64,000 bases of DNA from a virus (taxonomy: Duplodnaviria; Caudoviricetes). Both the position numbers and the translations under genes were made by a program. Below the pieces are notes generated by a model, which saw only the letters and a program-made list of their open reading frames with translations, did not search any database and was not told the DNA's origin. Numbering within the stretch: the stretch's first letter is position 1; every line of letters starts with the position of its first letter. Positions 35,805 through 64,000 of this stretch are shown piece after piece. The DNA lies in the IMG/VR virus record IMGVR_UViG_3300042691_017518, positions 1,010 through 65,009 of that record. One strand, given 5' to 3'.

Positions 35805-36278
35805 TTATCCAGCAAGATCTTTATCAAATAGAAGCATGTCGTTAGTAAGAGCTAATCTAGCTAATAAATCTAAATATTCCCCTACTGCCCCTACTTGATG
35901 TGTAGTAAAGTCTTGTAACAAAAGTACAACTTTTAAAGAAAGATCTGCACGTCTTGCAGACTTTTCATACTCATTAAGTAGATCCTTTTCCATTTGGTAA
36001 GCCATTTCTAAAGCTGACTTAATATCAGTACAGCTACAGTCTACTGCATCTAATGCCTCAACACTTAGTTCTCCTCCTAAATCATTAGCAAACTTTTCTA
36101 TTTTTAAGTAATGCTCACGTTCTCCATTAGACTCATCTAAGAAAAACTTTTCTGCGCCAAAATAAGATAAAGACTTCATTCTGTTGCTTAGTTTTAAATA
36201 AGCTTGTGAAGCTGTTAGTTCTAGTTTACCAAACTTGTTGAGTTCTTTTTGTTCTATGTCTGTAAGTAATTTTTCCAT
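35805..36278 (-). CDS. ferritin-like protein
   Basis: ELTASQAYL, GAEKFF...EREH, ALEMAYQMEK, HQV; probable start ATG 36278. Confidence 0.85.
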   Translation of the reverse strand: MEKLLTDIEQKELNKFGKLELTASQAYLKLSNRMKSLSYFGAEKFFLDESNGEREHYLKIEKFANDLGGELSVEALDAVDCSCTDIKSALEMAYQMEKDLLNEYEKSARRADLSLKVVLLLQDFTTHQVGAVGEYLDLLARLALTNDMLLFDKDLAG

Positions 36279-36280
36279 AA

Positions 36281-39200
36281 TTAACATTCTTTTTTAAACT
36301 GTTCGTTGAAGAACACATTTACTTTTGATTTAAGCAATTGTTTTATAATATCATTAAAGTTATTATCTATTATTTCTTTTCTTGATGGAGTTCCTTCTAA
36401 AGCAGCTAGTTCTGCATAAGCACTACTATCTTTTCTACCAGCTTCTTCAAGAGCTTGCATAGCTTGCTCTCTAGTCATTGTGCCTTTTTTAACAGCATCT
36501 ATGTATTCTGCATCATATTTAGCATCTATATCAACAGCTAATTCTTTTCCTCTTTTTTCAATAGCTACTTCTAATTCATTTATTTCATCTAATAATCTTT
36601 TTGCAGGAGTAAGAGCATAAGAGCTTTTTAAACCTGTAAGTTTACTTTGAAGTTTTGCAAAAGCAGAGTCAGACATTACATCAATAGTCCTATATGCTTC
36701 TTGTCTTCTTCTTTCTATATCAGCTTTCTTAGCTTCTATGTCAATTGGAGTTTCTGTTTCTTCTTCAATAGCTATTCCAGATTCTTGTGCTACGATAGCT
36801 TTACGAAGAGCTAAGAAATGCTCAGGCATACCTTTTTTAAATGCAGGTAGTTGGCCTATAAAAGTATCTCCTTGATAAACATTTATTGCTACATCTTCAG
36901 GAGAACGATCTACTTTATTATAATCATTGTCAGATAACTTAAAAGTAGCTTCTACAGTATTTTCATAAAGCTCTTTATTATTTAAGAAATCAGGAGAGTT
37001 AATTAAAGCATTATCAGAAGGTTGATCAGATTTTTCTCCTCTAGGATTAGTCCATGCTTCCCATCTACCTGTTTTAGGATTACGAACTAGCTGTCCATCT
37101 TTTATTTTCTTATCATATAAAAGAGGTATAATAGAATTATTACCAACATTACTAGTTTCAAAGATTGACGCTTCTTCTATTTTCTTAGTCTCACTTGCAT
37201 AAAAATCTGGATCAAACTCAGCATCTTCATCTAAAGGTGCAGGTTGATTAGCATCAGTAGGGTCTGCAAAATCTTGCTGTAGGGTTGGTTCAGTTTTCTC
37301 TTCATTAAAAGTTTTTAATAACTCTGTGAGTGCATTAGAAATTTTTCCTGCAGCATTTGGATCATTGGCAAGTACTTCAGCAAGTTGGTCTATATTATAT
37401 AATCCAGGAATAGCTTTATTCTCTTTTTCTAATTTATCAATGATTTCTCTAAACAATGCAGGTTTTGATTGTAGAGTTTGAATAAGAGTATCTGTATCTA
37501 CAACAGTGGCATCTTTAGCTTTAGGATCTAAATCAGCAATTAAACTAGCTAATTCTTGATCTGTAGCAGCTAATTCCGCAGCAGCTCTTTCATCTACTAT
37601 ACTAGTGTTGCCTGTTAAAGATTTCTCATCAGCTGCTACTTTATTTAAAGTGTCAGAAGACTTAGCTGCGGCAGCAGCTTTTTTAGTATCCTCTTCAGCT
37701 TCTTGAGCCATTGCTATTTTAGAATTCTCATATAACTGCGTGTAGATATTTAAAAAGTCTTTTGCGCCTTTATTAGTAAAGAGCACATCATACATTTTAG
37801 AAATCTTAGCTTTACGTTCTTTGATTAAAATTAAATCTTGTAATAAAGGCTCTATTTGTTTTCTGTATAGATTATAACTTGTTGGGTCGTTTTCTTTCCA
37901 GTTATTAAGTTCTGCTTGATATAGTTCTTTTGCAGTAGTAGCAAACTCTGCTGAGTCTTGAGCACTAACTCCTGCAATTTGAGCAATAAGTTTATTTAAA
38001 ACTTTAGGACTTACATTCCCTTTACTTAGTTTATTAACTACTCCTTGTAGTTCATCTTCACGATTTTCTAAATTTAAAGTAGCGCCATAAAGGAAAGTCA
38101 TTTGATCTTTTAAAGGTTCTGTAAGACCTAATGGATCTTCTACACCTTTAAAGTTTTTTCTCCAGAAATCTACAAATACTTTGCTATCATTAAAAGCTGT
38201 GTCTACTTCATTGTGAGCTTTAATAATATTATCTGTGTTAAATCTAGCTTTATCTAAAGCAGCTTTTCTAGTTTCTTCTGTAAACTCTAGAACTCCTTGG
38301 ATACCAAACTGCTGATTAAAAGTTTCTAAAGGCAGTTGCTCAAGAGCATCGAGTTCTTGAATAACAGTTTCTCCAATACGATTTTTAACACGAGTTGAAA
38401 CAAAAGAATGGAATTGTTCGTATTCTTTGTTTTTATAATTAAAGATATCCCCCTTATCTAAAGCTTCATCCATCTCTGATTGAATGGTAAAGTTTTTAGC
38501 CATGTTCTCAAAGTTATTTTTAAGAACAGGGTTAACAGGATTATCATTAATATTTTTAGCAGTAGCTCTAGCTTTTTCTACTTCTTTTTTAACTTCTTTA
38601 ATTTCTTGTCTAACTCCTCCATAAGATTCCCAACCTCTAGAAAGTTCTCCTGTTTGAGCATCGTATTTAAAAGGCAGCTTTAATCCTAACATACCCATCA
38701 AGAATCCTATACTCATAGAATCAAACCCTTCTACTGATCCCCCGTAGTTACGAGCAGCAGTAGTCATTGACTTTAAGAAAGTAGTAGAGTTCTTGATTGC
38801 TTCATCAGAGAATTGAGCACTCCAATAGTTAGAATATCCTTCCTGAATTACTCCTTGTGCGTATTCTTCAAATCCTTCAGTTAATCCAGATTTTAAAGCA
38901 GTTGTACCGTAACCTAAAGCTCTTCCAAATTTACCCATTGCATCCGCACGAGCAACTACTTTTCCTCCTTTGGCAACAGTTCCTGTCATCCTTAAAGGAT
39001 TAAGGCGGGAAATAGCTTGATTTACTCTATAGCCAGAACTAAAAGCTTTAGAGAACTGAATCATATTAGAAAAACCTACAAGAGGAATGTTGGTAAACCA
39101 AGCTAACTCAGATGCATCCTCTGCTCCTTTTTTAATAAGAGCCATTTTTGCTGGAGGAATAACTGCTTCCTCCATATCAGAATTCTGAAGAATTTTAAAA

Positions 39201-43252: not shown

Positions 43253-46195
43253 TTATTTTCCTTGAAAGTATTTTTCTCTTAATACATCTATGTAGGGAGT
43301 ATATCCGAATTTTTTAAATCTTGTAATATCTGGTGCTCCTAGTGCTGCATATTGCATAGCTAAGTCATTAGAAATTTGAGTATTTCTCCAATCTTTAACT
43401 CCAGTAAGAGCTTCTTTACCGTGTTCTTGTCTAGCTGTTTGCGAAGCAAGATTAAGTTGTTCTGCAGCTGCTCTAGCTTTATCGTATGCAGAAGTGTTAA
43501 TATCTCTTACATGTATTTTATCTGCTAGATAAGCATTCTCTTCTGCCATACCAATATTTCCTAATTGTTTAGCACGTTCAGCTGCTATAGCCTGTGCATA
43601 CCCTGGAGTATTAGTAGTGCCCTTAATAGTTTTTAAAGTAGCTGCAAAGTTTTCTCTTGCATCATTTTCAGCCTGAGTATAGTCAGGACGAATAGCTTCC
43701 ATTGGAGTATAGAAATCTTTAGCACTATAACTTTTAGGTTTAGAAAATGCTTGATAAGCATTATAAGCAATAGGAGCTGCATTAGCAATTACATCCCAAG
43801 CAGTTCCTTTAGTACTGATATCTTGTGTAGTATCTGTAAGAGTAGTATCTACATCGTAATTACCTCCATTATCATACATATGTCCGCCCATCCTTTCTAC
43901 GTTATCTAAAGGCATATACATTTGTTGACGAGGCATTTGAAAAGAACCACCGTATTTATAAATCTGTGTATTAGTCAATCCTTGACCCATTGGACCTGCA
44001 TGATTTTTCCAATCAGGATTAATCTGAGGAAACTCGTGGTAAGAAACTTTTGGTTGATAACCTCCATACTTAGCATAGCTACCTGCTGCCATATCTGTTG
44101 TCAACATAGCATTAGGATACATGTTTTGAGGTGTACCAGGTAAAGCTGCTACAGGTTGTAGATTATTATCAGTAATAGGATTAAGTTGTTTCTGTGCCGT
44201 ATCAGCATTTTCTTGACTAATTCTTTGTGTTGCTGCAGTTGCTGCTGCATTAGTTATTCCTGCACCAACTGTTGCCGCTGCAGATAAAGCTGGGCCTGCA
44301 AAAGGTATAAAGTTTAATAGAGGCGCAGCCATTCCAAGTCCTTTAGATATTTTTTGAACTTTTTCTGGATCATCAATATTTCCTCCAAACTCATACATGT
44401 TTCCTCCATAACCACACATTTTTCCGCCTCTCATATACATAGAGCCTCCGTAACTCATAGGCAATTGAGAAGAAGGAATTATTTCTCCTCCGCCTTGTGG
44501 AGCAGCCATTTGTTGCATCATTGCAGGATCCATAGGAGCTCCACCTTGTTGTTGCATCATAGCTATTTCTTCAGGAGAAGGTTGTCCTTCCATTCCTTGT
44601 TGCATAGCCATATCTTGTTGTGCAGCCATTTGATCTTCAGGACTCATTTCCATCTGTCCTCCAGAAGCACCGCCTTGTAATAAGGCGCCCATCTCTTCTG
44701 GATATTTAGTTATCATCTCTTGCATGTCAGCTTGCATTTGCATCTGCTTTTGCAATTCTTGAGCATTCATTAGAGTTTCTAATTCAGTATCTCTAGCTTT
44801 ATCTTCTATACGATCATAGCCTTTTTCTCTACGAGAGTTACCATTTCTACTATTAATATTTTTAGATACTTCTGCAAAAGTTTTACCTACAAAATTTTTA
44901 GGTAAGTTTAATTCTTTAGCAATATCTTTATCTACTTTAATTTTATCAGAGAAGATATAATTAGCAGCATTAAGTTTTGTCTCTCCTTGTTCTACAAGAT
45001 TAGCTCTTCCATCAGGAGCAGTTCCTTGTGGAATTCCTCCAAGAGGATTTTCTTCATGAGAACCTCCTGCATTAAACTCAGTTAAAGGATCCATCGACCC
45101 TCCTTCAGCAAAAGATCTAGACTTAATTTTATTCTGAACTTCTGTAGGCAATGCTCTAAAACCAGGATTATTAAATCCTCCTTGAGCATACATATGACTC
45201 CCCATAGCATTTTGTTTAAAATTCATAGTTCCTCCTTGTTTAAATATTGATTGTCCGCTTCCAAACCATCCTTTTGGAGCAGTCATTGATATAGGTTTTG
45301 TTTCTTTAACTTCTGTTTCATAAGGTACTGAACCATACATACCTGGACTACTACTAGGTTCTGTACTAATTTCAGGACTAAATCCTTCAAGCATTTGAGG
45401 TGCTAAGGTAGGTAATTGGTTTACATGCACTTCTGGTTTAGCTGTAAAAGTACTAGGTTTTAATTTTTCACTTTTTGTTGTACCAAAACTTTTAGGTCTA
45501 GTATCTCCTGATTCAGGATTATTTTCTTTAGGTGCTACGTAATCTTCATACAACTTTGTACCATAATTAGGAGCAGTAGCATAGCCAGCTTTTTCTAAAC
45601 CTATAGCAAAGTCTTTTGCTGTAGCACTTGCTAAAGCTTTTTGGTAACGTTGGTTAGTTTCTAAAAAAGCTCTATGTGCAGCAAATCCTTCAAAAGCATT
45701 ATTGAACTCCATAAAACTAGATTTAGTTTTAGTTCCTGCGCCTTCTTTAGTATCTGCTTCTTTTCCTTTAGAAACATCTATACCTCGTTCTGCTAATTTA
45801 TTTCTAACAGCTTCGTTATGAGATTTAATTCCAAAGTAATTATAAGGTGAAGATAATCTAGCACCTCCGCTAGATTCAAATTGCCATTGTCCCGCAACTA
45901 CTTTAGCTTGTTCTGGATTATATCCTACAGCTTCTGCTAGTAGTTTAGCTTGATTATAAGTTTGTGGTTCGTTAATGCCTAAATTAAACCATGCTAATAC
46001 TTTATCAGGATTAACTCCAGGCATTCTCATATAATGTTCTACTTCAGGAGGTAAATCTCCATAAGTAGTTTCATATGCTGACAAATCAGGAGTACCTTCT
46101 TCTAAATCTCCTCCCATAGCATATGAATTAAAATAGATACTTGGATTAAATCCTAAAGCTCTTAAGTCTTCTTTTTTATTTGAATCTTTTGCCAT
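43253..46195 (-). CDS. virion cargo protein with GH73 (FlgJ/glucosaminidase-like) peptidoglycan hydrolase domain
   Basis: GQWQFES, NYFGIK, RY, GYATAPNY (about 45540-45950); GGSHEENPLGG...VEQGET...YIFSD block characteristic of crAss-like cargo proteins; Met/Gln-rich region. Confidence 0.8.
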   Translation of the reverse strand: MAKDSNKKEDLRALGFNPSIYFNSYAMGGDLEEGTPDLSAYETTYGDLPPEVEHYMRMPGVNPDKVLAWFNLGINEPQTYNQAKLLAEAVGYNPEQAKVVAGQWQFESSGGARLSSPYNYFGIKSHNEAVRNKLAERGIDVSKGKEADTKEGAGTKTKSSFMEFNNAFEGFAAHRAFLETNQRYQKALASATAKDFAIGLEKAGYATAPNYGTKLYEDYVAPKENNPESGDTRPKSFGTTKSEKLKPSTFTAKPEVHVNQLPTLAPQMLEGFSPEISTEPSSSPGMYGSVPYETEVKETKPISMTAPKGWFGSGQSIFKQGGTMNFKQNAMGSHMYAQGGFNNPGFRALPTEVQNKIKSRSFAEGGSMDPLTEFNAGGSHEENPLGGIPQGTAPDGRANLVEQGETKLNAANYIFSDKIKVDKDIAKELNLPKNFVGKTFAEVSKNINSRNGNSRREKGYDRIEDKARDTELETLMNAQELQKQMQMQADMQEMITKYPEEMGALLQGGASGGQMEMSPEDQMAAQQDMAMQQGMEGQPSPEEIAMMQQQGGAPMDPAMMQQMAAPQGGGEIIPSSQLPMSYGGSMYMRGGKMCGYGGNMYEFGGNIDDPEKVQKISKGLGMAAPLLNFIPFAGPALSAAATVGAGITNAAATAATQRISQENADTAQKQLNPITDNNLQPVAALPGTPQNMYPNAMLTTDMAAGSYAKYGGYQPKVSYHEFPQINPDWKNHAGPMGQGLTNTQIYKYGGSFQMPRQQMYMPLDNVERMGGHMYDNGGNYDVDTTLTDTTQDISTKGTAWDVIANAAPIAYNAYQAFSKPKSYSAKDFYTPMEAIRPDYTQAENDARENFAATLKTIKGTTNTPGYAQAIAAERAKQLGNIGMAEENAYLADKIHVRDINTSAYDKARAAAEQLNLASQTARQEHGKEALTGVKDWRNTQISNDLAMQYAALGAPDITRFKKFGYTPYIDVLREKYFQGK

Positions 46196-46212
46196 AGTTA
46201 ACTATTTGAAAG

Positions 46213-46220
46213 TAAAGGTA
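46213..46220 (-). promoter_or_regulatory. Bacteroidota-type -7 promoter element (TACCTTTA)
   Basis: One mismatch to TAnnTTTG, 18 nt upstream of the 46195 start. Confidence 0.5.
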
Positions 46221-46225
46221 CGAAA

Positions 46226-49200
46226 TTATCTATTAAATAATTGAGAAGATTTTATAACTCTTGCTTGTCCTCCCATTTTAAATTGTATAGCTGATAAGTT
46301 TTTCCAATCAATATCTTTGGTGTCTTTGATATTATATAACTTTCCACTGTGAATAGCATCTTCAATGCTACGAATACTTGCTCCATTTTTTATAGCTTCG
46401 TTAACAAGATCTGGGTCTACATTATTTTCTAAAGCTCTTACACGGAGATCTTCTAATTTTTCGCGTAATTCTACTGCAGCTCTGAATCTTTCTTTAGACC
46501 CAGCGTTTTGATTTTTTCCAATAGCATTCCAGTCAATTTTACCTCTACTTACATCTTGTATAGGACCCCTATTAAGGAACGATTCAGGATAAGCTTGTGG
46601 AAATTTCGACTGCATTACTGCTTTTGCAGCACCTGGTTCAGTATAACCTATATTCATTGACCAATAACTGTCTGGATCAGGATGTTTTGTATTTAAATCA
46701 ATTAATGAAAATTTATCAGTTGCAGAATCATACATTATGTTTTCAGGATTCATGAAGTCATATGATACTCCTTTTGATTGAAGATCTTCTACTTCAGATA
46801 TAAATCTGTCAATGGCTTCTCTCGACGGATCTGCTGGAATACCAGGTTCTCCTGGTACACGATTCATTACTTTTAATGTTTTAAGTTCTGGTCTGGCAGA
46901 GTTGTTAATTTTTACAACAGATAATGGAAGGGCAATATGAGGTTTATCTTGGTATTGTTTTCCTAAATCAACTAGTGATTGTAAAGATTCTAATGTTTCA
47001 TGTTTTGGTTCTTCCCCAATTTTAACTAATAAATTTTTATCAATAGTAGTAGGATACACAGATCCAAAACTACCTTCACCTATCTTATTTTCATAAGATA
47101 AATTAAGCGGTAAACCTTGTTCATTTGCAACTCTAGACATCCACTGATTTTGTAAATCTCCATAGTCACCGAATCTAAATGTAGAAGTTAATTTACCAGT
47201 TGCAGGGTCTATATTCTTTTTTATGGTATTATTAAGTTGTTTGTATTTAATAACATCGGCAATTGAATTATTAAATAAGTTAACTGGTAATGCTTTTGAT
47301 GACTGCAAATCTCCTCTAAATGAAGTTGCGCCTTCCATTGCATCAAATAATCTATTTACTTTATACTCATTAGCCAGATTAGCTAATGCTTCTTCTTTAG
47401 ATATAGCAGCTGGTTTATAATATTTAGTGGCTCCAAGTAATCCACGTTCTCTACCAAGTACATTACCCACAAGACCATTAGAAGGAAGGAATCTTAATCC
47501 TTGCATTGCTGCAGTAAAATAATTACCTTCTCCTATATTTCTTACAACTTTATCCCCAGCATCAACTAGATTTGTACTTGCATTTAATGCATCACCTACT
47601 AAGTTAGCTCCTTTGCCTGCAGAGGGATCTATACCTGCCATAAGCATATCATTATAGTTATGTGGCATATTTCTAAAGTCTCCTGTTCTTACAGCATATT
47701 CAAATGCTACTTGAGGATTAGTAATCATATCCCATGCTCTGCTTCCATAGCTCTGAGGTGCGGTAGATTTTTTTGCTACTGTTTCACTTGCTGGTCCAGA
47801 TCCAATATTTTTTGCATCTTCTTTTTGTATATATTCTCCTGAATTAAAATTTGATGATTGAACAGCTTTATTAGCACTTTCTAAAGCAGTATTATAATCG
47901 ACACCTGTTTTTTGTGCATCTTTTGCAGCCATCATTTTAGCTGCTCTTTCTCTTAACTCTGCTCCTCTTTTTTGATCTTCCGCTACATTTTTAGAATACG
48001 CGGCAGTTTTTTGTGTAGTCTCAGATTTTTGAGGTTTGTTGTCAACTAATGGATCATATTTATTTATTCCTGCTGCTTTGTTCTTAGCTTGTTGCATTTG
48101 ATATGCATTAGGACGAACAGTTACTTCTTGTCCTTGAGTTACTCTTTGGTATTCAGGATTTAAGAATTGAGCAAGTTGTTGATTAGTTGGATAGATAGGT
48201 CCTCCTGGGGCAAATAACTTTCCTCCGTAATTATAAACATATGCACCATCAGGATAAGTTAAATCTTTTCCTTCTCCTTCTAACTGAGGAGTATTAGACA
48301 TAGATAAAATACTTCCTCCATTTTCAAAAGTTACACCTTGTAAATCAAGTTGTTTTAATTCTTTTGGTCTTTCTTCAACTTCATTGCCTTTACTATCAAT
48401 ATAAAGTACTCTTGGAGCATTTGCAGGTTGCCAACCTTCACCAGGAAAATATGCAGAATAAGGAACTTGCCTCATTTCTTTCATTCTATACTTACCTTCT
48501 CTATCAGGATCAGCTTCCATAATAGTTTGAGATCTATTAGCAACTTGTATAGGTTTGTATTTTTGAGGAATATAATTATAATTATTAGGAATGATTTGTG
48601 TTTCTATTTGTGGTAATTTTTTAGTAGGTAGGTTTAGTATCTCTAACTTAGGATTTGTTTTTGGTGCAACTGGCTTATATAAATATTGATTACCTGCTTC
48701 GGTATAGCCATCTATTCTAGGATCATTTGGATCAGATAAATAAATAGGTGGGTACTTTTTTTCATAACTGCTTTTGCTCAGAGCAAAATCATGGCTTTTG
48801 CTCCAATCCACAGTTGTTGGCTCTACTTTTGATTTTTTTAATATTACCTTTTGTTTTGGAAAAGGAAATAATTCACTTGGATAGTCATCCATACCTACAA
48901 ACAAACTTCCTTTATAAGGTACTGCATGTGCATCATCAAGTCTTAAGTCATCTTTAGCAGTAGTAAAATCATACCAAGATTTTTTATATTTACTAGATAT
49001 ATCTTTTCCTTTCCAATCAGGATGTCTTTTAAAAGCTCCTTCCGCTTTTTCACTATATCTATTTTTATCTCGAGTTTGTATATAATTTTGTGCTACTTTC
49101 TTTTTTTGATCTTGTGTTTTTGCAGCAATTAGTGCATCAGCATAGTTCATAATATGGTGACTTAATTGTGCCCTACTCAAACTATCATTATGAGCTAGAA

Positions 49201-51364
49201 GTCTTGGATCATTCGGATTAGTTACATATATAGGTTTAGGTTTTACAGGATCTCCTGGTCCACCTAACATTCCTCCTTCTGCGTATTGATTAGGGTTTTC
49301 TTTATGCCATTGTTTAGTTGCAGCTATTCCATCTGCTACTGTTTTAGCTCCTGCTTTAGTAGTAAGATCTATAGTATCCCATTGACCTTTATCCATTGTA
49401 GGATGATTAACTATTATGTGACCTTCCATTCCTTCTCCATTTCCTGTAGGAGAAGTTTTCTTATAGATCTTATGTTTCTCTCCTCCAGCTACTACAAGTT
49501 TTCCTCCTTTTGCAAATTTAGTAGCACCTGCACTAAAAGGATCTGCTAAGTATTGAACAGGAGTTAAACCTGCTGCTCGCATAGCTGCCTTTTGCTCTGG
49601 AGTCATAGTTTTTAATAACTCCATATTATTAAGTCTCTCTGCTTCTAATGCTTGTTGATTTTCTTTAGCTGCAGGAGAATTAGCAACTTTTTCTAAGTAA
49701 CTAGAGTATTGTGTATTTCCAAAACTATTAGGAATTTCTCTTGGAGTTGCAACTCCTGTTACAGGATTAAAATCTTTTACTACTTGTCCTGTATAAGGAT
49801 CTGTATAATAGTTAGTCTTAGCTACTTCAGGTATAGGAGGAGTAGAAGGAATAACGGTATTTATATTTACTGGTCCTGGAGCAATAGGAGAACCTGCTTG
49901 GTTTCTTTCCCAATTTTCTGCAGCAGTTACATAATCACCTACTGTTTTAAAATTAGCTGTAGCAGCACCACTAGTAATTTGGTTTCCAATTCCAGGTAAA
50001 GAAGTTAAAGGTAGACTTAAATTATGTCCTTGTGGAATCATGCTATAATCTCCCATCCAAGAATTTCTATTAGCAAGATTAAAAGGAGTTCCTGCAGGAG
50101 CATTATCAGGAGGTAATAAAGCTCCTCCTTCTGCATATATCCCAGGATAAGGCGCAGAGGATGATGCATAAACACTGTTATGTAAATTAGTTCCTCCTTG
50201 TTTAAAACTATCTTCAGGTAAACTATAAGGTCTAGGAAACTGTCCGCCTGTTCTGTATTCTCTAGCAATTTTTCTTCCTTGAGCTAGCATTTCTTCACTA
50301 GGCTCTTTGCCTTCTTTTCCTGCTCTTTTATTGGAAGCAGCCTTAGCTCTAATATTATCCCAAAGACCTCTTGGAGAATAACTACCGTCAGCACGTTTAA
50401 TCATTCCTCCTTGAGCATAATAGTTTCCTGGTTGAGAAGCGTAGATACTTGTAGCATAATCAAATACTCCTTGATCTTCCCCAAATGGCCCACCTTCTCT
50501 AAACATATTTCCTAATGCAGAAGCGTAAGTACTTTGTAATAATTTGCCGTTAATGTCTCTATCATGAAGAGGTCCTCCATCTGCAAACTTTTCTGTAAGA
50601 CTTACAGGTTTAGGATTTGGATTTGCTAGTAATTCTTTTTGTGCTTGAAGTTCTTGATCTAAATAATAGGGGTCTACAAAAGAACTTCCAGGAAATGGAG
50701 ATCTAGTCCCATACCCCATAGGCATTTGGTAAGTATCTGACAAATACTTTATATGCTTTAAATTTTCTTTATCGCTTTTATTATTATAAACTAATTCAGC
50801 TCCTCTAGTATTGTTACTCATGTCATCATAACTTTGACTACTATTTTCAAAATTAGCTGCTTCATGTGCTGCTCCTAAAAGCAGTGAACCAATATATCCT
50901 AAAGTAGGAGAACCAGTTGCATCAGCAATTGCTTTAGCAGTATGATAGCCTGCATTTGCGTGACGAATATTATCTACATTATCTTCTCCTTTTGGTGCAT
51001 GGAATTCTCCTGCTCTTCCTGCCCTACCCATTGCGTCATTAAGCCTACTATTAATAGTTCTTTCAATACCTGGTTTAGGTATCCAAGCCATTTTATCTAT
51101 CTTGGCATTTTTGTTTAATTCTTTTGTTCTATTACCTGTTGGATCTTGAATAGGTTGAAATTTAAAATCAGTTACATCATTACTAATATACCATTGGTTA
51201 CCTATTTTTTTGTATTTATTTTTAGTATCACCGTAGGTATAGTATTCTGTTTTTGGAGGATTATTTAAAGAACCTCCTGCTGCAAAAGGCAATGCTGTAG
51301 TATCTCGATATATCGGCGTTCCTGCTGATTTATAGTAAGTCGGTATGTTTTTAGGCTTCTTCAT
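46226..51364 (-). CDS. modular (polyvalent) virion protein, 1712 aa, with C-terminal protein kinase-like domain
   Basis: IGEGSFGSVY, LVKI, DFMNPENIMY, LIDL near C-terminus; 13 [FY]xxGG motifs separating modules. Confidence 0.8.
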   Translation of the reverse strand: MKKPKNIPTYYKSAGTPIYRDTTALPFAAGGSLNNPPKTEYYTYGDTKNKYKKIGNQWYISNDVTDFKFQPIQDPTGNRTKELNKNAKIDKMAWIPKPGIERTINSRLNDAMGRAGRAGEFHAPKGEDNVDNIRHANAGYHTAKAIADATGSPTLGYIGSLLLGAAHEAANFENSSQSYDDMSNNTRGAELVYNNKSDKENLKHIKYLSDTYQMPMGYGTRSPFPGSSFVDPYYLDQELQAQKELLANPNPKPVSLTEKFADGGPLHDRDINGKLLQSTYASALGNMFREGGPFGEDQGVFDYATSIYASQPGNYYAQGGMIKRADGSYSPRGLWDNIRAKAASNKRAGKEGKEPSEEMLAQGRKIAREYRTGGQFPRPYSLPEDSFKQGGTNLHNSVYASSSAPYPGIYAEGGALLPPDNAPAGTPFNLANRNSWMGDYSMIPQGHNLSLPLTSLPGIGNQITSGAATANFKTVGDYVTAAENWERNQAGSPIAPGPVNINTVIPSTPPIPEVAKTNYYTDPYTGQVVKDFNPVTGVATPREIPNSFGNTQYSSYLEKVANSPAAKENQQALEAERLNNMELLKTMTPEQKAAMRAAGLTPVQYLADPFSAGATKFAKGGKLVVAGGEKHKIYKKTSPTGNGEGMEGHIIVNHPTMDKGQWDTIDLTTKAGAKTVADGIAATKQWHKENPNQYAEGGMLGGPGDPVKPKPIYVTNPNDPRLLAHNDSLSRAQLSHHIMNYADALIAAKTQDQKKKVAQNYIQTRDKNRYSEKAEGAFKRHPDWKGKDISSKYKKSWYDFTTAKDDLRLDDAHAVPYKGSLFVGMDDYPSELFPFPKQKVILKKSKVEPTTVDWSKSHDFALSKSSYEKKYPPIYLSDPNDPRIDGYTEAGNQYLYKPVAPKTNPKLEILNLPTKKLPQIETQIIPNNYNYIPQKYKPIQVANRSQTIMEADPDREGKYRMKEMRQVPYSAYFPGEGWQPANAPRVLYIDSKGNEVEERPKELKQLDLQGVTFENGGSILSMSNTPQLEGEGKDLTYPDGAYVYNYGGKLFAPGGPIYPTNQQLAQFLNPEYQRVTQGQEVTVRPNAYQMQQAKNKAAGINKYDPLVDNKPQKSETTQKTAAYSKNVAEDQKRGAELRERAAKMMAAKDAQKTGVDYNTALESANKAVQSSNFNSGEYIQKEDAKNIGSGPASETVAKKSTAPQSYGSRAWDMITNPQVAFEYAVRTGDFRNMPHNYNDMLMAGIDPSAGKGANLVGDALNASTNLVDAGDKVVRNIGEGNYFTAAMQGLRFLPSNGLVGNVLGRERGLLGATKYYKPAAISKEEALANLANEYKVNRLFDAMEGATSFRGDLQSSKALPVNLFNNSIADVIKYKQLNNTIKKNIDPATGKLTSTFRFGDYGDLQNQWMSRVANEQGLPLNLSYENKIGEGSFGSVYPTTIDKNLLVKIGEEPKHETLESLQSLVDLGKQYQDKPHIALPLSVVKINNSARPELKTLKVMNRVPGEPGIPADPSREAIDRFISEVEDLQSKGVSYDFMNPENIMYDSATDKFSLIDLNTKHPDPDSYWSMNIGYTEPGAAKAVMQSKFPQAYPESFLNRGPIQDVSRGKIDWNAIGKNQNAGSKERFRAAVELREKLEDLRVRALENNVDPDLVNEAIKNGASIRSIEDAIHSGKLYNIKDTKDIDWKNLSAIQFKMGGQARVIKSSQLFNR

Positions 51365-54300
51365 TAGAACATTTGGTAATCAAAGTAAGACATCAAACGA
51401 TTTGTAATCAACTCTTTATTATCTTGATTGTCGAAGTATAAAGTTAAAATAAAATATGTACTACGCAAACGACCTTGTTTAGAAACACTTAATTGATCTC
51501 TAGGAATTTTAACTCTCCATTTATCAAACTTACGCATGATTCTTCCTGAAGAGAATGGAGTCTTAAGAGTATCTTGATATTGAGTTTGAATTCTAAATGC
51601 AGTAATAGTTTTAGTTCTATCAATAACTTTATTATCATCTCTAACTATACTGTTGAATTCTATTGTTCTAAGAACTTTATTCATATCTGCTTGTGGGTTA
51701 ATCACTAAGCTAATAGAACATTCTTCTGTATTACCATAAAACTCTCCCCAATTTCCTATATTATGAGTATAAACTGTATCTGGTTGAGAAGGATCAGAAC
51801 TCATTAATATATCAGAATTCTCTACCCATATTTTAGGTGTAGCGGAATATCTTGAAGAAAACTGTTGCATTAAATCATCTAGTACTATACTGTCATCTTC
51901 TAGATTTAATTCTTCAGGAGTTTTAACATCTGCGTTGGCAGCTAGTTCAAAAAATATTGTTAGAGGATTTTCTCCTGTTGTAAAAGTATCTGTTACTAAA
52001 AAGTAAGTATCAGTTTTTGGTATATATACAACTGTTCCTTGAGTATACTCTGTATTAATAGTAAGTAGTTTATAATCTCCTGATCCTAAGAAAGTAAAGA
52101 TAACTTCATCATTTATTTTATCATATCCTATAGCTACCCCTTTTTTAAGAATAGAGTTATCTCCTCCATCTTCTTTTCTAAAGAATACAGCATCAGGCAA
52201 TGCTTGTAACCAAGAGTGAATTCCTTTTACTTCTGATATAGGTGTGTTAGTACTTTTAATTCCTGCTCCAGCAAGTTGGTACAACTTTCTAGAAATAGCA
52301 TCAAAAATATAAATACAGTTTTCAGTAGCTTTTACTCCATATTGATGAATTGCTCCATGCTCCTTAGAGTAATATTGATGCTTACCAAATCCCGCACCTA
52401 TACCTAATTGTGTAGGAACTCCGTCTAAAGTTGTAGTAATAGCTGCTCTATTAATCGCAAAGATTCCTATTCCTTTATCTTGAATAAAATAAACTGTATC
52501 TCTCCAGTTTAAAATTTTATTGATAGGGCCGTAATCATCTACGTCATAATAACTATTGAGAGGAAACTGTGTCCATGAATCTATGACTTCTCCATTAGTT
52601 TTAACATTAGAAAGATATGTTCTCACATCATTGACTAAACAATTTGCTGTTCCTTCTGGTTTTATAAAGTAAGTGACAGTAGAATTTTCTACAGAATTTA
52701 CAGCATTATACGCATACATTTCTGCTGCTGTTTTGCCATAAGTAGTATTAGTATTATTAGTCTCTTGTCTAAATGCAATTATTTCAGTGCCACTAAAAGT
52801 ATATTTAACTCCTGTTTTTATTGTAGCTCCATATGCTAAATCTACATTAATACTAGACTCTACAGGATAAATTGCAGTTTCAGTATCATCTCCTGTATAT
52901 TTATTACTAGCTAAGTTTCCATAGAAATTAGTATCAAACTCCATTGTCTGCGGTTGCACTGTAAACATATTGATAAAAGTGTCTCCTCCAAATACTATTG
53001 GGTTTAAAACTGTTTTATCTATAACTGGAGAAGCTTGAATAAAAATATTATTTTCTAATGCATTTTGATTATAGCCGCCATATACTTCTAATTTAGGCAA
53101 TACATAGTCTATAAGTGGATAAGCATCGTGAGAGATTCCAATATTAGGAGCTCCTGTAAAAGGATCTTTTACATAAATGTAAGATACATAAGGAGCTTTA
53201 AAATAATTAAAAGCAGAATATGTAGGCAGGGCTATTCCAGTTAATATATCAGTTTGTATATTACTTAGTACTCCTATAATACTTGTACCTGCTTTATTAA
53301 GTGTACCTCCTTTAGGATTATTTAAATCAGCGCCTGTAGTTAAATATGCATCAGTAGCATAATAATTACGCATGTAATAACTTGCTGAGTATCCATCAGA
53401 AAAACTAGGGGTAACTTTAGTAGTATAATCTGAGGTATCAGGCATTTTTACAACTTGTGTATTAGCCCATTTTTTAATATTTTCTATACTGTTATAACTA
53501 ACAGGATAAACACTTCTATAAGTTTTTCTAAAATCAAAATCAGTTATTCCTAATCCTTCCGCACTATGGTCAACTGCAGAAGGAGTATTTTGTGATAAAT
53601 TATAATAACTTCCTGTAATTAATAAACAAGGATTGTTAGATAAAGATCCCATTGTATTTTGAGATCCGCCGTAATTATAAGAAATTTCTGGGGAATAGAA
53701 TCCTAAATACTGACCTTTAATGTAATAATCTGGTTCTCCAGGTATACCGTATACTGGTGTATAAGGAGAAGGATCATTTTCTTGATCTTCTAAAGTTCCA
53801 AAAGAAGCGTTACTAAATGATAAGTTAACGGGATCAGAAACGTCAGGATACTGACGGTATAAATGTACTACTTGTCCACTTCCACTAACTTTTAAATCAA
53901 AATCATGTGTTTTATCTCCAATAGAAGCAAACCAAAATCCTTTTACAAATCCTTGCGAGTATCTTCTTTTATCAGACTCTTGTCTTTGTACTCTTACTAT
54001 TTGATAACTTTCTATTTGACCTAAAAATAAAGGACAAGTAGAAAAGTCTAAGGTAAATTCTATTCCTATATTAAAACCTATTGTATCATTAGGATTTGCT
54101 GCTCCAGGTACATCTGATCCTTTACTAGCAGTAGGCCAAAAGTTAGTCCCTGAATTATTAGTACTTCCGTCTTCTTCAGAGATATCTGGAAACTTAATAT
54201 CTCCTATATATTCTACATACGTAGCTTCTCCTTTAATAGTATAAAATACTATCCCAAATCGATAAGTTTCTCCGCGTTTGTATCCACGCATTAAACCAGA

Positions 54301-55737
54301 TAAGAATGGCGAAGCAAAATTAGGAAAGGTAGTATTTTCATAAGTGCCATACCCATCATTAAAATTATGGGTAAAAACAAAATCAGGAGTATTGCTTACG
54401 TTAGCAAATCCTTTATCTGTATTATTACCGTCTAAGGTAAAAGGTTCTAGATGAAATTTATAACTAATATTAGGACCATTTCCTCCTAAAGTAACTCCAT
54501 CATTTTGATATCTAAATTGTTCTGCAAACTGCCAGTTTTCATCCCAATGAGCATCTAAATTATAATTAGTATTAAAAGCTAAATCTAATTCTGATTTAAC
54601 AGGTCCTAATGGATTTACGGTATTCCAATCATACCCGTCAAAATTAAAGCGCTTAGTTTTAGCATCAAAAGTCTCACCAGGCCCTAATAAATCTTGAACA
54701 TCAACAGTAGATCCTTTAATATTAGAAATAACTAAAGAACTATCTTTTTGTGTAATAGTCTTTGGAGTTTTAAAAGCATAAGACTTAACTATAAAATCAA
54801 ATAATTCAATAGGAACAATTGATCCTTCTGTGCCTGTATAGTTAAAAGTTACTGTAGCATTAGTGCCTATAGATATTTGTTCTACAGCAGTAACTTCAGG
54901 TGTTGCTGTGCTGTTAGCATAATAAGCAACTATAAATTCTATTTTGTCAAAATTCGTATACCCACTAGTATCTACTTGAATCTGAATACTTTTTCCTGTA
55001 TTTACTTGAGTAGGATTTCCATTATATTGTGCAGATTGAGGTAAAGATTCTGAGTCTTCTACAATATGAAATAATATACTTGGCGGAGCAATTAATGTTT
55101 GTTTACCGTCAGTAGTAATTAGTCTATAACTAACTTGGTATTCTCCAGATAATAAAGCACCTCCACCTGTTACAATTTTTAATAAAGGTTGTGTATAAGT
55201 TATATTAGGAAAGATATCAATGTTTCCAACATCTAATGTTTCTAAATCAGGATCTTCTAAATTTACTGTTCTAAAAAAATTATTATAATCAGTCCAATAA
55301 ACTCTTTGAATACAATCTGTTTCATATCGTCCTAAAGCTTCTATAGGCCATTTCTTTTCAAAATTTAAAAGAGGATTGTAATATTTTAATTCAGGAAATC
55401 CAGGAAGTATTTCTCTAGTAGCGGTGTTGTATTGTACGTCGTAAATCCATCCTTTAGCATCTGAATCATCTGCTACAAAAAGAATTATTCTATTTCTAAT
55501 TGTAGTGTATCCGATAATTTCTGGATTGCTAGCAGTCCAACCAGAACCGTTAAAAGTTCCTGAACTAGGAATAGTAAATGCTTCGACGTTTCCTTTGATA
55601 TTAGTCCATGCTCCCATCGATTCACCTGTAGTAGTGGTTATTCGAATATCTAAAGCATCTATGTAAAGAGTTGGGTCAATACTGTCATAGGCAGTATCTT
55701 TATTCATTCCTTGATATGTATTGATATGTCTTTCCAT
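51364..55737 (-). CDS. tail muzzle / stabilisation protein (crAss-like)
   Basis: 1457 aa beta-rich; GMNKD start, VYWTD, GYKRGETYRFGIVFY, FGGDTFI, DSWTQF, YGPIN; follows ring protein. Confidence 0.8.
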   Translation of the reverse strand: MERHINTYQGMNKDTAYDSIDPTLYIDALDIRITTTTGESMGAWTNIKGNVEAFTIPSSGTFNGSGWTASNPEIIGYTTIRNRIILFVADDSDAKGWIYDVQYNTATREILPGFPELKYYNPLLNFEKKWPIEALGRYETDCIQRVYWTDYNNFFRTVNLEDPDLETLDVGNIDIFPNITYTQPLLKIVTGGGALLSGEYQVSYRLITTDGKQTLIAPPSILFHIVEDSESLPQSAQYNGNPTQVNTGKSIQIQVDTSGYTNFDKIEFIVAYYANSTATPEVTAVEQISIGTNATVTFNYTGTEGSIVPIELFDFIVKSYAFKTPKTITQKDSSLVISNIKGSTVDVQDLLGPGETFDAKTKRFNFDGYDWNTVNPLGPVKSELDLAFNTNYNLDAHWDENWQFAEQFRYQNDGVTLGGNGPNISYKFHLEPFTLDGNNTDKGFANVSNTPDFVFTHNFNDGYGTYENTTFPNFASPFLSGLMRGYKRGETYRFGIVFYTIKGEATYVEYIGDIKFPDISEEDGSTNNSGTNFWPTASKGSDVPGAANPNDTIGFNIGIEFTLDFSTCPLFLGQIESYQIVRVQRQESDKRRYSQGFVKGFWFASIGDKTHDFDLKVSGSGQVVHLYRQYPDVSDPVNLSFSNASFGTLEDQENDPSPYTPVYGIPGEPDYYIKGQYLGFYSPEISYNYGGSQNTMGSLSNNPCLLITGSYYNLSQNTPSAVDHSAEGLGITDFDFRKTYRSVYPVSYNSIENIKKWANTQVVKMPDTSDYTTKVTPSFSDGYSASYYMRNYYATDAYLTTGADLNNPKGGTLNKAGTSIIGVLSNIQTDILTGIALPTYSAFNYFKAPYVSYIYVKDPFTGAPNIGISHDAYPLIDYVLPKLEVYGGYNQNALENNIFIQASPVIDKTVLNPIVFGGDTFINMFTVQPQTMEFDTNFYGNLASNKYTGDDTETAIYPVESSINVDLAYGATIKTGVKYTFSGTEIIAFRQETNNTNTTYGKTAAEMYAYNAVNSVENSTVTYFIKPEGTANCLVNDVRTYLSNVKTNGEVIDSWTQFPLNSYYDVDDYGPINKILNWRDTVYFIQDKGIGIFAINRAAITTTLDGVPTQLGIGAGFGKHQYYSKEHGAIHQYGVKATENCIYIFDAISRKLYQLAGAGIKSTNTPISEVKGIHSWLQALPDAVFFRKEDGGDNSILKKGVAIGYDKINDEVIFTFLGSGDYKLLTINTEYTQGTVVYIPKTDTYFLVTDTFTTGENPLTIFFELAANADVKTPEELNLEDDSIVLDDLMQQFSSRYSATPKIWVENSDILMSSDPSQPDTVYTHNIGNWGEFYGNTEECSISLVINPQADMNKVLRTIEFNSIVRDDNKVIDRTKTITAFRIQTQYQDTLKTPFSSGRIMRKFDKWRVKIPRDQLSVSKQGRLRSTYFILTLYFDNQDNKELITNRLMSYFDYQMF

Positions 55738-55746: not shown

Positions 55747-56571
55747 TTAAGAAGTCGCTGGATTCGGTCCTTGTGCTGCACCTGTAAGTACGTTGATTGT
55801 AGATACAAGAGCGATACCTGCTTTAGGTCTAAACTTACGTTGTTCTGGTAATTGCATATTAGCAAAGAATGAAGCATGTGCTTGTACATCTGGGATAGTA
55901 CGTAGTACTGAATTCTTAACTGTCTCAGCTTCGTCTACGCCATTCCATTGCTTAGCATGATTTACTGCTTGAGCAAAGTACCATTCTTTATCTCTTTCTA
56001 TAATTTGAAACTTATCTCCTGATAACTCATTACGAAGCCAAAGTTTTCTAGCTATACGATGAGCAATATAATGTGCTCCTGCTTCCATCCATTGCTGCTC
56101 TGCAGGAATAGTAGGATAACCACAATCGTCAGTTGGTATGGCTGAATAGCTCATTGCTACAAATCCTTTAGCCATAGAAGGAAAAATGTAACCTTGGCCA
56201 ACTGTATAAGTTTCTCTGGATTCTGTAGTATAATCTCTGTTGTCTAGATGATAGCGCTTATGAAAGTAATCAGTCTTCCATCTCATTGGGTATAAAGTTC
56301 CGTGTCCGCATTCTGCTTCTTCTAGAGTTTCTATACCAACAATATGGGCTACCTGGCCTATTTTGTAAAGGTCAAATGGTAAATCTCCACGACCGTCACA
56401 TATTTCAATATAGGCAATTCTTTCCTCCATAGTCACACCTACATTAGTATGAGCCATAAACTCTGCTAGCCATTCGATACCTTCTTCTTCTTTGATATCG
56501 TAATTAAAGCCAAAATCCCTGATAGTTTTATCAAGGATTGCTTTGTATGAAACGGTCTTTCCTGCGTGCAT
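55747..56571 (-). CDS. tail ring / adaptor protein
   Basis: 274 aa, position immediately before muzzle gene; Y.AIPTDD.GYP.IP motif. Confidence 0.65.
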   Translation of the reverse strand: MHAGKTVSYKAILDKTIRDFGFNYDIKEEEGIEWLAEFMAHTNVGVTMEERIAYIEICDGRGDLPFDLYKIGQVAHIVGIETLEEAECGHGTLYPMRWKTDYFHKRYHLDNRDYTTESRETYTVGQGYIFPSMAKGFVAMSYSAIPTDDCGYPTIPAEQQWMEAGAHYIAHRIARKLWLRNELSGDKFQIIERDKEWYFAQAVNHAKQWNGVDEAETVKNSVLRTIPDVQAHASFFANMQLPEQRKFRPKAGIALVSTINVLTGAAQGPNPATS

Positions 56572-56849: not shown

Positions 56850-57384
56850 AATAAAATACTTTTCTGTTAGGGTCTTTTACAACCTTAGCAATTAAACGAG
56901 AAAATTGTCTAGAAGCTTTAAACTTATAAAAACTTTTAAACTTTAAATTAATTGTAGCTTTATCCCAATGGTGATCATAAAATTCTTGATTGCTATGATC
57001 GTTCTCGTGATAAATTACTTTTTTATTTGGTATTTCTGTAATCTCTTGTCTAGATAAACCAGGATGTTTACCGTGCCAGTAGGCCCAAGTCTCATGCCAG
57101 TTTACTTTTAAACTTTTAAAACGAGTTCCGTCTTTCTTAAAAAATTTAAGAGGATTACTTCTTACTCTTAGTTTTCCTACTCTATTTACTTTTAATTCTA
57201 AACCTTCTTCTACTACACTTGTACTAAAAGCAGTAAGTAATTCTTTAATAAAATTATTATAAACAGGTCTGTTAACTAAAACTTCTTTAGAGTTTTTGAC
57301 ATAGAAATCATAGAAATCATTTTTCTTAATGTTTCCTTTCAGCTTTCCTTCGCCTCTTTTAAGATATGTATTAGTCTTTTGCAC
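56842..57384 (-). CDS. basic IHF/HU-like protein of crAss-type tail module
   Basis: Helical N-terminus then ELKVNRVGKLRVR and FKASRQFSR, HU/IHF-like pattern; GTG start. Confidence 0.55.
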   Translation of the reverse strand: MQKTNTYLKRGEGKLKGNIKKNDFYDFYVKNSKEVLVNRPVYNNFIKELLTAFSTSVVEEGLELKVNRVGKLRVRSNPLKFFKKDGTRFKSLKVNWHETWAYWHGKHPGLSRQEITEIPNKKVIYHENDHSNQEFYDHHWDKATINLKFKSFYKFKASRQFSRLIAKVVKDPNRKVFYYG

Positions 57385-58093
57385 TGTTACCTGTTATAGT
57401 AGCGTTAGTATCTGCTCTTTGATCTTCAGCATTGTTAGCATCATCAAGAGGATACATTCCTTTCTGAGCCAATTGCTGAATAATATAAGGCTTCATATAT
57501 GCCCACATCCATTGATTTAATGGATAAGGGTCTGTTGGTTTCCAACAAGTTTGATTTGTTTCACAGTTGATATAATCTCCAAGAGCAGTAGGGTCTTCGA
57601 AGATGCCTCTCAATGTAATATACTTAAGCATTAAATGCGCAGGATTCTTACTAGTTACATACATGTAACCTCCGTAAAGAAATGCGTAAATACTATTCTG
57701 TGTAGTCCTGCCTTCTCCTATGTAAGGTACTCTAGAGTAATCTATAAGTATAAAGCGTGGTTTCATGATATCAGCAGGCCCCACAGAAGTAATGCCTTTA
57801 GTGTAAAAAAATTCTATCGTATTTGGAATTTGCTTTTTAGTTCTAAGAACTTTACAACCTGTAGGAACTGAAATACAACAATCTATAGGATCAACTAATT
57901 CTAATTCCATACATTTTAGATCCTGAAGTACATAAGGATCTATAGAACGGTTTTTATTGTATTCATTACGAATCCATAAAGCTCGTTGCTCATTGATTAA
58001 GTCCGTGTATAATTCATAAGAATACGAAGATTCTATTGAGTTAATCGCAAGGAACTCATCTATTTGTGCTTGGTAATCTTGAAGTGACAGCAT
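57371..58093 (-). CDS. tail ring protein
   Basis: 240 aa, RALWIRNEY, LRTKKQIP, GIFEDP, YPL, DDANNA; tail module context. Confidence 0.65.
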   Translation of the reverse strand: MLSLQDYQAQIDEFLAINSIESSYSYELYTDLINEQRALWIRNEYNKNRSIDPYVLQDLKCMELELVDPIDCCISVPTGCKVLRTKKQIPNTIEFFYTKGITSVGPADIMKPRFILIDYSRVPYIGEGRTTQNSIYAFLYGGYMYVTSKNPAHLMLKYITLRGIFEDPTALGDYINCETNQTCWKPTDPYPLNQWMWAYMKPYIIQQLAQKGMYPLDDANNAEDQRADTNATITGNSAKD

Positions 58094-63302: not shown

Positions 63303-64000
63303 TTATCTACTTATTTCTTCCCAATCTAATGAAGCATAAGCTCCTAAAGTTCCTCCTATAGCATCAATAGCCATTTCAATAACTATTTCAAAAGGAGTAC
63401 TTGTAAAAGTATTTCTTTCTAGTTGAGCTGCAAATAAAGCTTCTTTTAGTATATCCATACTTGGAGAACCTTGATTGGATGAATTTATATATCCTTGTGC
63501 TAATACTCTACCACCTGTAGTTGATGTGCCTGTAAGATTATATTCTACTGAGGAATCAGCTGAAGCAGGATTCCAAGCTCCACCAGTTATTGCAGTTCCG
63601 TTTAAAATTCTCCATGCATAGTTTTTACCATTACCTAATCCTAACAAAGATACAGCAGTAAGAATAACAACAGCATCTAAGGTAGTAGCTTTAAGTCTTA
63701 TTCCTACAATAGGATAAAATGTTCCTGCTACAGGAAAAGTTCTAGGAGTAAGTATAGGTGTTCCAACTGCTTGTTGCGCTCCTCTAAGTTCATAACCACC
63801 TTCAGATATTGCAGTAGAGCAAACTTGTTTTAATGTGCTTGGACTAGCTGTAACTCCTGTATTAGTTATCTCATATCTTAATGGTAATGAAGCTGTAGTG
63901 ATATAAGTAGAGGCAATTAAGTTAGCATGGTTAAATCTATGGCATACAATAAAGTTACCGTCTATAACAAATCCTAATCTTACAGTACCTTCTCCTAACC
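63303..64000 (-). CDS. virion structural protein, 5' truncated by window edge
   Basis: Frame is open upstream of 63647 to the window end (WLGEGTVRLGFVIDG...HRFNHAN...LPLRYEI...CSTAISEGG). Confidence 0.75.
   Translation of the reverse strand, partial: LGEGTVRLGFVIDGNFIVCHRFNHANLIASTYITTASLPLRYEITNTGVTASPSTLKQVCSTAISEGGYELRGAQQAVGTPILTPRTFPVAGTFYPIVGIRLKATTLDAVVILTAVSLLGLGNGKNYAWRILNGTAITGGAWNPASADSSVEYNLTGTSTTGGRVLAQGYINSSNQGSPSMDILKEALFAAQLERNTFTSTPFEIVIEMAIDAIGGTLGAYASLDWEEISR

Follow-up and report, generated by a model that had tools for sequence, protein, structure and literature searches.

Why two neighbouring phage genes should encode proteins punctuated 22 times by the same short peptide is the question raised by the stretch of DNA analysed here (hereafter the window), 64,000 nucleotides that correspond to positions 1,010 to 65,009 of the record IMGVR_UViG_3300042691_017518 (Caudoviricetes) and are a fragment of a crAss-like phage genome. 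The two proteins, P0001 and P0002, had been described in an earlier note as cargo in which motifs of the type [FY]xxGG were either polyprotein cleavage sites or packaging tags. When searched with a regular expression, all the motifs listed there were recovered in place and both open reading frames (ORFs) proved to be as described: 13 motifs occur in P0001 (1712 amino acids; starts at residues 27, 260, 288, 316, 370, 387, 410, 617, 694, 1013, 1044, 1051 and 1695) and nine in P0002 (980 amino acids; starts at residues 25, 318, 336, 362, 374, 587, 601, 746 and 774), which also contains the variants MSYGG, CGYGG, AKYGG and ERMGG. The answer we favour, with a probability of roughly 0.45, is that these motifs belong to heptads that are left uncut and serve as a multivalent seam or tether of a chain threading the portal and the tail.

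Shuffling each protein 300 times gave a mean of 0.88 motifs for P0001 and 0.77 for P0002, with a maximum of four for both, and the remaining 41 counted ORFs of the window contained five motifs altogether (43 of the 53 listed ORFs were counted; the ten excluded were ORF 29-271, an open-ended duplicate of 63303-63647 and eight short ORFs that lie within long genes or antisense to them). The motif is thus enriched with respect to both shuffled sequence and the rest of the proteome. A logo built from 607 unique instances rendered the heptad consensus [YF][AKR]xGGx[LMIF], with positions 0, 3, 4 and 6 constrained (L, M, I or F at +6 in 78%) and Pro directly after the GG pair in 15% of instances; outside the heptad there was little conservation, save for a frequent S-x-Y-A-S some ten residues upstream. 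The codons of the GG pair vary. GGA-GGA was found in 14 of the 22 window motifs, against about a third expected from codon use, but over 80 related loci GGAGGA accounted for 26% of the GG pairs in motifs and for 29% of those elsewhere in these genes. Given this codon variation and the lack of GGAGGA enrichment over the 80 loci, selection acts on the peptide, as had been supposed. Internal translation starts and Shine-Dalgarno-like pausing at GGAGGA were rejected: V is scarce at position +6, which is taken up by L, M, I or F, and the motifs of those loci show no enrichment of GGAGGA.

Judged by sequence comparison, P0002 is a homologue of crAss001 cargo protein 1 (gp45). Its CARG1 domain matches PF25725 with an E value of 7.6e-27 (94.5 bits versus a cut-off of 27), a family to which P0001 shows no match, and the solved gp45 chain 7qog_M matches residues 364-542 (E 6.8e-15); Foldseek pairs the P0002 model with the same chain at 39% identity and a template modelling (TM) score of 0.51, but with an E value of only 0.57. 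By homology to gp45, this domain is predicted to bind the portal. Ahead of CARG1 lies a GH73 domain (PF01832, E 1e-14, 55.7 bits versus a cut-off of 30.2), matched by FlgJ (PDB 5dn5) both in sequence and in fold (TM 0.60). The P0002 gene also occupies the position of a cargo protein 1 gene, downstream of the muzzle gene and ahead of large genes presumed to be RNA-polymerase-associated. As for P0001, all nine long relatives examined fuse a P0001-type backbone to a CARG1 region in a single polypeptide; eight of them begin with a P0001-type leader and four also show a P0002-type C-terminal helical domain. P0001 and P0002 therefore behave as one string split over two genes. The description of both proteins as cargo is upheld, and it is most likely that they are virion-borne and injected.

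In AlphaFold2 models, all nine motifs of P0002 and all 12 of those in the modelled part of P0001 (residues 1-1110) start in segments with a predicted local distance difference test score (pLDDT) below 50. Of the P0002 model 50%, and of the P0001 model 71%, consists of such segments, and the heptad-bearing stretches are probably disordered; the linker of P0002 at residues 318-378, for example, stays below 50 apart from a helix at 344-360. The claim that the motifs lie between and not inside domains thus held for the models, but motif 374 falls within the Pfam envelope of CARG1 (residues 369-489). Nor is the bracketing of domains by motifs universal, motif-free blocks of ~800 residues being present in some relatives. 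The gaps between motifs are bimodal, half of them being of 30 residues or fewer and many of 120-400, and by a wide margin the commonest spacing is exactly 7 residues. With F, Y, M, W, C or L allowed at position 0, 350 pairs at this spacing were counted; at least two tandem heptads were present in 140 of 188 proteins and at least three in 75, the longest run being of six.

The motif also lies at module borders and near both termini, as the earlier note had proposed. Among 334 BLAST high-scoring segment pair ends, 67% lie within 10 residues of a motif, versus 15% of random positions. Ten of the 11 abutting joints detected in eight close relatives sit exactly at GG (the exception lies 10 residues past a motif); at these joints the upstream half of one motif is fused to the downstream half of another, with the removal of P0001 residues 34-259, 624-693, 624-1012 or 701-1011. 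Likewise, the module at residues 38-224 is absent from four close relatives, excised exactly from GG to GG. The leader of P0001, which ends in a motif, is 70-86% identical in mosaic relatives, and 85 of 187 family proteins have their first motif at residue 25-30; at the other end, the 13-residue tail behind the last motif follows differing effector modules in six relatives. When module order was compared among relatives it was found to be shuffled, with insertions, deletions and swaps at GG seams.

A search with P0001 defined a family set of 74 proteins (the two window proteins plus 72 matches), 73 of which carry 4-22 motifs versus 0.5-2.1 expected. An exhaustive search with the P0001 backbone yielded 124 further proteins, 91 of them with at least three motifs (638 observed versus 61 expected in total), and the backbone segment matched 893 representative proteins at E ≤ 0.001. 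The 73 mosaic homologues of P0001 each cover just 3-41% of it. Common to them are the leader (~1-35), the backbone (~251-425), residues 601-700 and 1001-1075, and the 13-residue C-terminal tail; the variable parts consist of ADP-ribosyltransferase (ADPrib_exo_Tox), YkuD plus PG_binding_1, GNAT plus ART-PolyVal, or HExxH modules, the relative P0056 carrying ART-PolyVal (PF18760) and GNAT. In the 80 related loci, motif-rich ORFs (those with at least four motifs) were only the one to three genes right after a muzzle-sized ORF, the muzzle being assigned there by size and position; their motif density was 6.6 per 1000 amino acids versus 0.41 in 270 other ORFs of at least 300 amino acids. Since the other large ORFs of the window presumed to encode cargo or RNA polymerase (950, 1357, 3391 and 1954 amino acids) carry 0 or 1 motif each, the motif is not a general packaging tag. 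The proposal of a tag able to load arbitrary cargo is thus only partly consistent with the distribution of the motif.

A structural constraint comes from gp45. Its residues 425-552 form one ordered, portal-bound segment in the cryo-electron microscopy structure as reported by Bayfield et al. 2023 (PMC10172136), and this segment, which starts at a GG site, passes without a break through three such sites, two of which align with the canonical motifs 362 and 374 of P0002; residues 364-378 of P0002 align with its ordered N-terminal part. According to the same report, the tail barrel contains gp45 residues 214-245 and the capsid residues 425-552, and one chain spanning the portal is argued for (PMC10172136). 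GG sites bracket both resolved segments. In addition, GH73 is N-terminal of CARG1 in all 57 proteins that have both, and the linker between them is never shorter than 111 residues, about what a fully extended chain needs to bridge 420 angstroms, the span given for crAss001 (PMC10172136).

These observations can be combined as follows. P0002 and P0001 would each supply one half of a crassvirus cargo string of the C1 type, built like beads on a thread. The beads would be exchangeable modules (the GH73 wall hydrolase, CARG1, the basic helical hairpin of P0001, its helical module and its kinase-like module), and the thread the probably disordered stretches bearing the heptad. In the virion the seams would stay uncut, each acting as a Gly-Gly hinge between two hydrophobic anchors, with the chain extended along the portal and tail channel so that GH73 lies tailward and CARG1 at the portal wing. 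The seams would provide many weak attachments to the virion interior and to neighbouring chains, the CARG1-less P0001 included, and at infection the modules, held until then, would be unfolded and fed out in order. Uncut seams are favoured because of the heptad arrays, the Pro residues after GG, the continuous gp45 segment, the placement of gp45 214-245 in the tail and the failure to find a protease of the families searched for (see below).

Several points weigh against this reading. No partner that binds the motif came to light. At position 0 the three GG sites of gp45 depart from the canonical residues, and that they are uncut is therefore no proof that canonical sites stay so; the 111-residue linker floor rests on few independent lineages, which makes the geometry of the GH73-CARG1 linker weak evidence. 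The low pLDDT of P0001 may partly reflect a shallow alignment (24 rows). The records searched for proteases were incomplete (49% for the window record and 66-69% for its relatives; the crAss001 genome is complete), and a co-packaged metallopeptidase is conceivable given the HExxH motifs described below. Joints exactly after GG, and stand-alone proteins that start at a post-GG module, would be expected of cleavable units too. Finally, the near lack of motifs in the large ORFs of the presumed cargo and RNA-polymerase block means that the motif is not needed for packaging as such.

The first rival, which we regard as rather unlikely, is that the heptads are processing sites: a protease, either co-packaged or supplied by the host, would cleave the polyproteins at GG or beside it and free the effectors in the manner of MARTX toxins or phiKZ-type inner-body proteins, be it in the particle or, with greater plausibility, once they have been injected. 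Module insertions and deletions that start and stop exactly at GG, a conserved leader of ~30 residues that ends in a motif, a conserved tail after the last one and stand-alone proteins starting where a post-GG module starts are all in its favour, as is the mixing in one chain of modules for different compartments (wall hydrolases with ADP-ribosyltransferase or kinase-like modules). Autoproteolytic release has been proposed for polyvalent proteins by Iyer et al. 2017 (PMC5512222), who also point to a metallopeptidase domain within the virion RNA polymerase of N4. Nineteen of 188 family proteins contain HExxH modules (P0001 and P0002 have none), and an HEAFH motif is present in the 3391-residue ORF of the window. 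Against processing, cleavage of tandem heptads would yield peptides of 7 residues, 15% of instances have Pro after GG, no break interrupts the solved gp45 segment across its three GG sites, and the N-terminal gp45 segment lies in the tail, which would be hard to reach after cutting inside a prohead. The clan CE or C39 protease for which the earlier note had suggested looking did not appear: peptidases C48 (PF02902), C39 (PF03412), C5 (PF00770), S78 and S77 were each found in 0 of five records (the window record, three relatives and the complete crAss001 genome), the C5 and S77 profile searches having no positive control. A Pfam search over 36 further window ORFs rendered DUF2201_N, PhageMetallopep and M15 as the only peptidase-type matches, and the HExxH modules of relatives have no Pfam match. 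The residue after GG shows no preference for Ser, Thr or Cys, which speaks against self-cleavage, and this variant was rejected. The 7-residue spacing, the Pro residues, the unbroken gp45 segment and the protease searches lean away from cutting at every motif.

Unlikely, too, is a passive seam, that is, a heptad tolerated as a flexible linker and kept through in-frame recombination between copies that exchanges modules harmlessly, a hinge only, set between independently folding modules, with neither partner nor cutting. The joints at GG, the shuffled module order of relatives, the location of motifs in low-confidence linkers and the want of a partner would all fit. Yet a mere hinge leaves unexplained the aromatic residue at position 0, the A, K or R at +1 and the hydrophobic residue at +6 over 607 instances, as well as the tandem arrays and the restriction to C1-type genes, and there is no conservation at the DNA level to drive recombination (GGAGGA, 26% versus 29%). 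Very unlikely, lastly, are homotypic stickers like those of FG nucleoporins or LARKS (low-complexity, aromatic-rich, kinked segments), by which heptads in disordered spacers would draw together strings with and without a CARG1 anchor, so that a cargo body, or a plug, forms at the portal and tail channel: multivalency, tandem arrays, an aromatic, Gly and K/R composition in low-confidence regions, the same motif in proteins with and without CARG1 and the low-density cargo zone reported beside the crAss001 portal (PMC10172136) would suit them, but the likeness to FG and LARKS segments is putative, and the defined register and +6 position point to a specific site, not to generic cohesion.

Further indications of where the chain might lie come from the basic hairpin of P0001 (~321-369), its most widely shared piece. 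In another crass lineage, stand-alone proteins of 79-270 amino acids that start with this hairpin are encoded between Ring2-like and Ring1-like genes (loci L088, L090-L093, L096, L097 and L100, at about 7500-9400), and a second small ORF with GG motifs adjoins them in the eight loci examined of 15. A cluster look-up of these small relatives returned no names. This gene neighbourhood suggests that the backbone pieces are contents of the tail barrel, like the N-terminal part of gp45. Co-folding of Ring 1 and Ring 2 with P0001 251-430, done without controls, gave a score of 0.00 and a mark of 0.32, and weighs neither for nor against binding. Portal genes were located in three relatives.

P0001 as a whole belongs to no Pfam or PHROG family; neither a tblastn search of the phage collection nor peptide patterns run against viral contigs revealed a close relative, and the PDB gave a single chance-level match (E 0.35). 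Of the domain names given earlier, GH73 stood up by Pfam and by fold; a kinase remained a weak lead and the helical toxin-like module a weak fold match. Residues 1424-1557 match Pkinase (PF00069) with 13.1 bits against a cut-off of 31.7 (E 0.062), and the Atlas look-alikes of this putative kinase-like module include OspG and Pkinase clusters at 0.94. Many P0001-type relatives, locus L014 (7355-9940) among them, end instead in an HExxH module at this place (e.g. HELGHDW), and gp081 of Phi14:2 has two HExxH motifs. At other places of the variable C-terminal part, relatives have HExxH, ADP-ribosyltransferase or YkuD modules. The match of residues 38-224 to DUF6973 (Pfam E 0.0013) is under the cut-off, and a fold search with the 1110-residue model returned middling helical matches only. 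The best fold matches of residues 94-234, the N-terminal domain of Wnt8A (Z 9.8) and the Bacteroides fragilis type VI secretion effector BteO (Z 7.6), are no more than leads, since the module is helical.

The record from which the window was taken is a 65-kb fragment with an estimated completeness of 49%, portal and capsid genes lying outside it; GC content across the window is 30-38%. A plus-strand replication block (618-19679) with Pfam matches to a family A DNA polymerase (618-2627 (+)), helicases and primase-like domains is followed by a minus-strand block. The former also encodes a spore-photoproduct-lyase-like protein and a DUF2201 VWA-like protein with a putative metallopeptidase N-domain, and both GC skew and AT skew change sign at ~19700, where the replication and virion blocks join. 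The minus-strand order is M15 peptidase, holin, Ring2, Ring1, muzzle, P0001, P0002 and then ORFs of 950, 1357, 160, 3391 and 1954 amino acids, which is the tail, cargo and virion-RNA-polymerase layout of crassviruses (Table 1). Pfam gave no match for any of the four large ORFs that follow P0002, and their labelling as cargo- or polymerase-associated therefore rests on size and position. In that of 3391 amino acids (25613-35788 (-)), HEAFH is the single HExxH motif, at residue 633. The 160-residue ORF (35805-36287 (-)) is ferritin-like or rubrerythrin-like (PF00210, E 3e-14) and overlaps the end of the 1357-residue ORF, inside this block of giant presumed cargo and RNA-polymerase genes.

Table 1. 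Features of the two cargo genes and of the neighbouring tail genes, in window coordinates
Feature	Position	Strand	Remarks
P0001, CARG1-less mosaic cargo ('polyvalent') protein, 1712 aa	46226..51364	(-)	13 heptads
P0001 residues 1-33, conserved N-terminal leader	51266..51364	(-)	ends in FAAGGSL
P0001 residues 38-224, optional folded helical module	50693..51253	(-)	weak DUF6973 match; pLDDT 63-87
P0001 residues 251-430, conserved motif-rich backbone	50075..50614	(-)	7 motifs; highest homologue coverage
P0001 residues 321-369, basic helical hairpin	50258..50404	(-)	directly after YAQGG; helices 331-347, 357-371
P0001 residues 601-700, segment between motifs 617 and 694	49265..49564	(-)	
P0001 residues 1001-1075, seam cluster	48140..48364	(-)	motifs 1013, 1044, 1051
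P0001 residues 1424-1557, kinase-like C-terminal effector module (weak)	46694..47095	(-)	
P0001 residues 1695-1712, last motif and conserved C-terminal tail	46229..46282	(-)	FKMGGQA; tail of 13 residues
P0002, gp45 homologue, 980 aa	43253..46195	(-)	9 strict motifs plus variants
P0002 residues 47-240, GH73 / FlgJ-like peptidoglycan glucosaminidase	45476..46057	(-)	PF01832
P0002 residues 318-378, linker running into CARG1	45062..45244	(-)	motifs 318, 336, 362, 374
P0002 residues 369-489, crAss_CARG1 domain	44729..45091	(-)	PF25725
P0002 residues 580-607, four tandem heptads	44375..44458	(-)	conserved columns G583, G584, G604, G605
P0002 residues 705-780, motif group	43856..44083	(-)	AKYGG, YKYGG, ERMGG, YDNGG
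P0002 residues 793-980, C-terminal helical domain	43256..43819	(-)	pLDDT 54-73, long helices
Muzzle protein	51364..55737	(-)	PF25731 E 1.4e-136; directly upstream of P0001; 1 motif
Tail ring protein 1	55747..56571	(-)	PF24228 E 3.9e-43
Tail ring protein 2	57371..58093	(-)	PF25702 E 1.7e-31

Both proteins are of kinds already described, namely the C1 cargo family and the polyvalent proteins. With crAss001 gp45 (Bayfield et al. 2023, PMC10172136; PDB 7QOG, 7QOI, 7QOJ, 7QOL and 8CKB), P0002 shares membership of PF25725, the 7qog_M match and a gene position downstream of the muzzle, and gp45 has three strict GG motifs plus variants. It differs in having a glycine-zipper or transmembrane N-terminus where P0002 has GH73, and the motif is far denser in P0002 and P0001; moreover, a second, CARG1-less string (P0001) is placed here between the muzzle gene and C1, unlike in crAss001. 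The main text of Bayfield et al. mentions neither the motif nor cleavage, a protease or a scaffold, and that of Shkoporov 2018 lists gel bands and assigns none to gp45; the supplements of both may bear on cleavage. For P0001, the closest published concept in the sources cited here is the polyvalent protein of Iyer, Burroughs, Anand, de Souza and Aravind 2017 (PMC5512222), described there as a multi-domain protein of mobile elements that combines ADP-ribosyltransferase, kinase, acetyltransferase, lysozyme and metallopeptidase domains and is thought to be delivered with DNA. Several unrelated effector domains per polypeptide, as this concept has it, are found in the relatives listed above and, in the window, in the GH73 and CARG1 of P0002. 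The definition includes no heptad seam, CARG1 anchor or muzzle-adjacent position, and the main text is silent on crAss, glycine and linker (PMC5512222).

Other systems share single traits with the one described here. Repeated units ending in GG, with the di-glycine beside a hydrophobic position, are known from substrates of the adenovirus protease (adenain), of pS273R of African swine fever virus (ASFV) and of C39 leader peptidases, and from ubiquitin-like precursors. Compared with the consensus of adenain, pS273R and C39 substrates, in which P4 is hydrophobic and P1' permissive, the heptad differs in having its aromatic residue at P5 and not P4, A, K or R at P4, Pro at P1' in 15% of instances, and tandem copies. 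The giant phages SPN3US and phiKZ have a dedicated prohead protease whose site differs from the heptad; the S77 and S78 families were found in 0 of the five crass records. MuF toxins are not known to have a repeated seam motif. MuF-domain polymorphic toxins are, as described by Jamet et al. 2017 (PMC5576092), also associated with phage heads and have swappable toxin domains, but their anchor is MuF and not CARG1. In the cited accounts of the SPN3US and phiKZ ejection and inner-body proteins (PMC10052503, PMC5694885), many packaged and ejected proteins carry a repeated short site, as here. The literature searched, supplements being outside the search, contained no description of the heptad, of its coincidence with joints, of heptad arrays, of the split and fused forms or of cargo processing in crassviruses.

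The heptad, conserved in hundreds of relatives, predicts where the chain is flexible, at which sites modules can be swapped and which residues to mutate. Among the phages of the human gut, crassviruses are the most abundant. Most of cargo protein 1 is missing from the resolved parts in the single structural study, in which one chain apparently spans capsid, portal and tail (PMC10172136). A bolder idea, to which we give little credence at present, is that the heptad is a portable loading-and-release code by which any seam-flanked module is recruited, through multivalent contacts of the seams, to the tail channel and to the C1 ring anchored at the portal, then packed, fed out and perhaps cut free in the host; if true, it would mean plug-and-play injection of arbitrary effectors by crassviruses and would explain their rampant module swapping. 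If docking or processing turned out to be signalled by the seams, these could serve to load foreign proteins into phage particles. For the crassviruses themselves, the heptad family defines a large and fast-evolving arsenal of injected enzymes, with wall hydrolases, ADP-ribosyltransferases and kinase-like and metallopeptidase-like modules.

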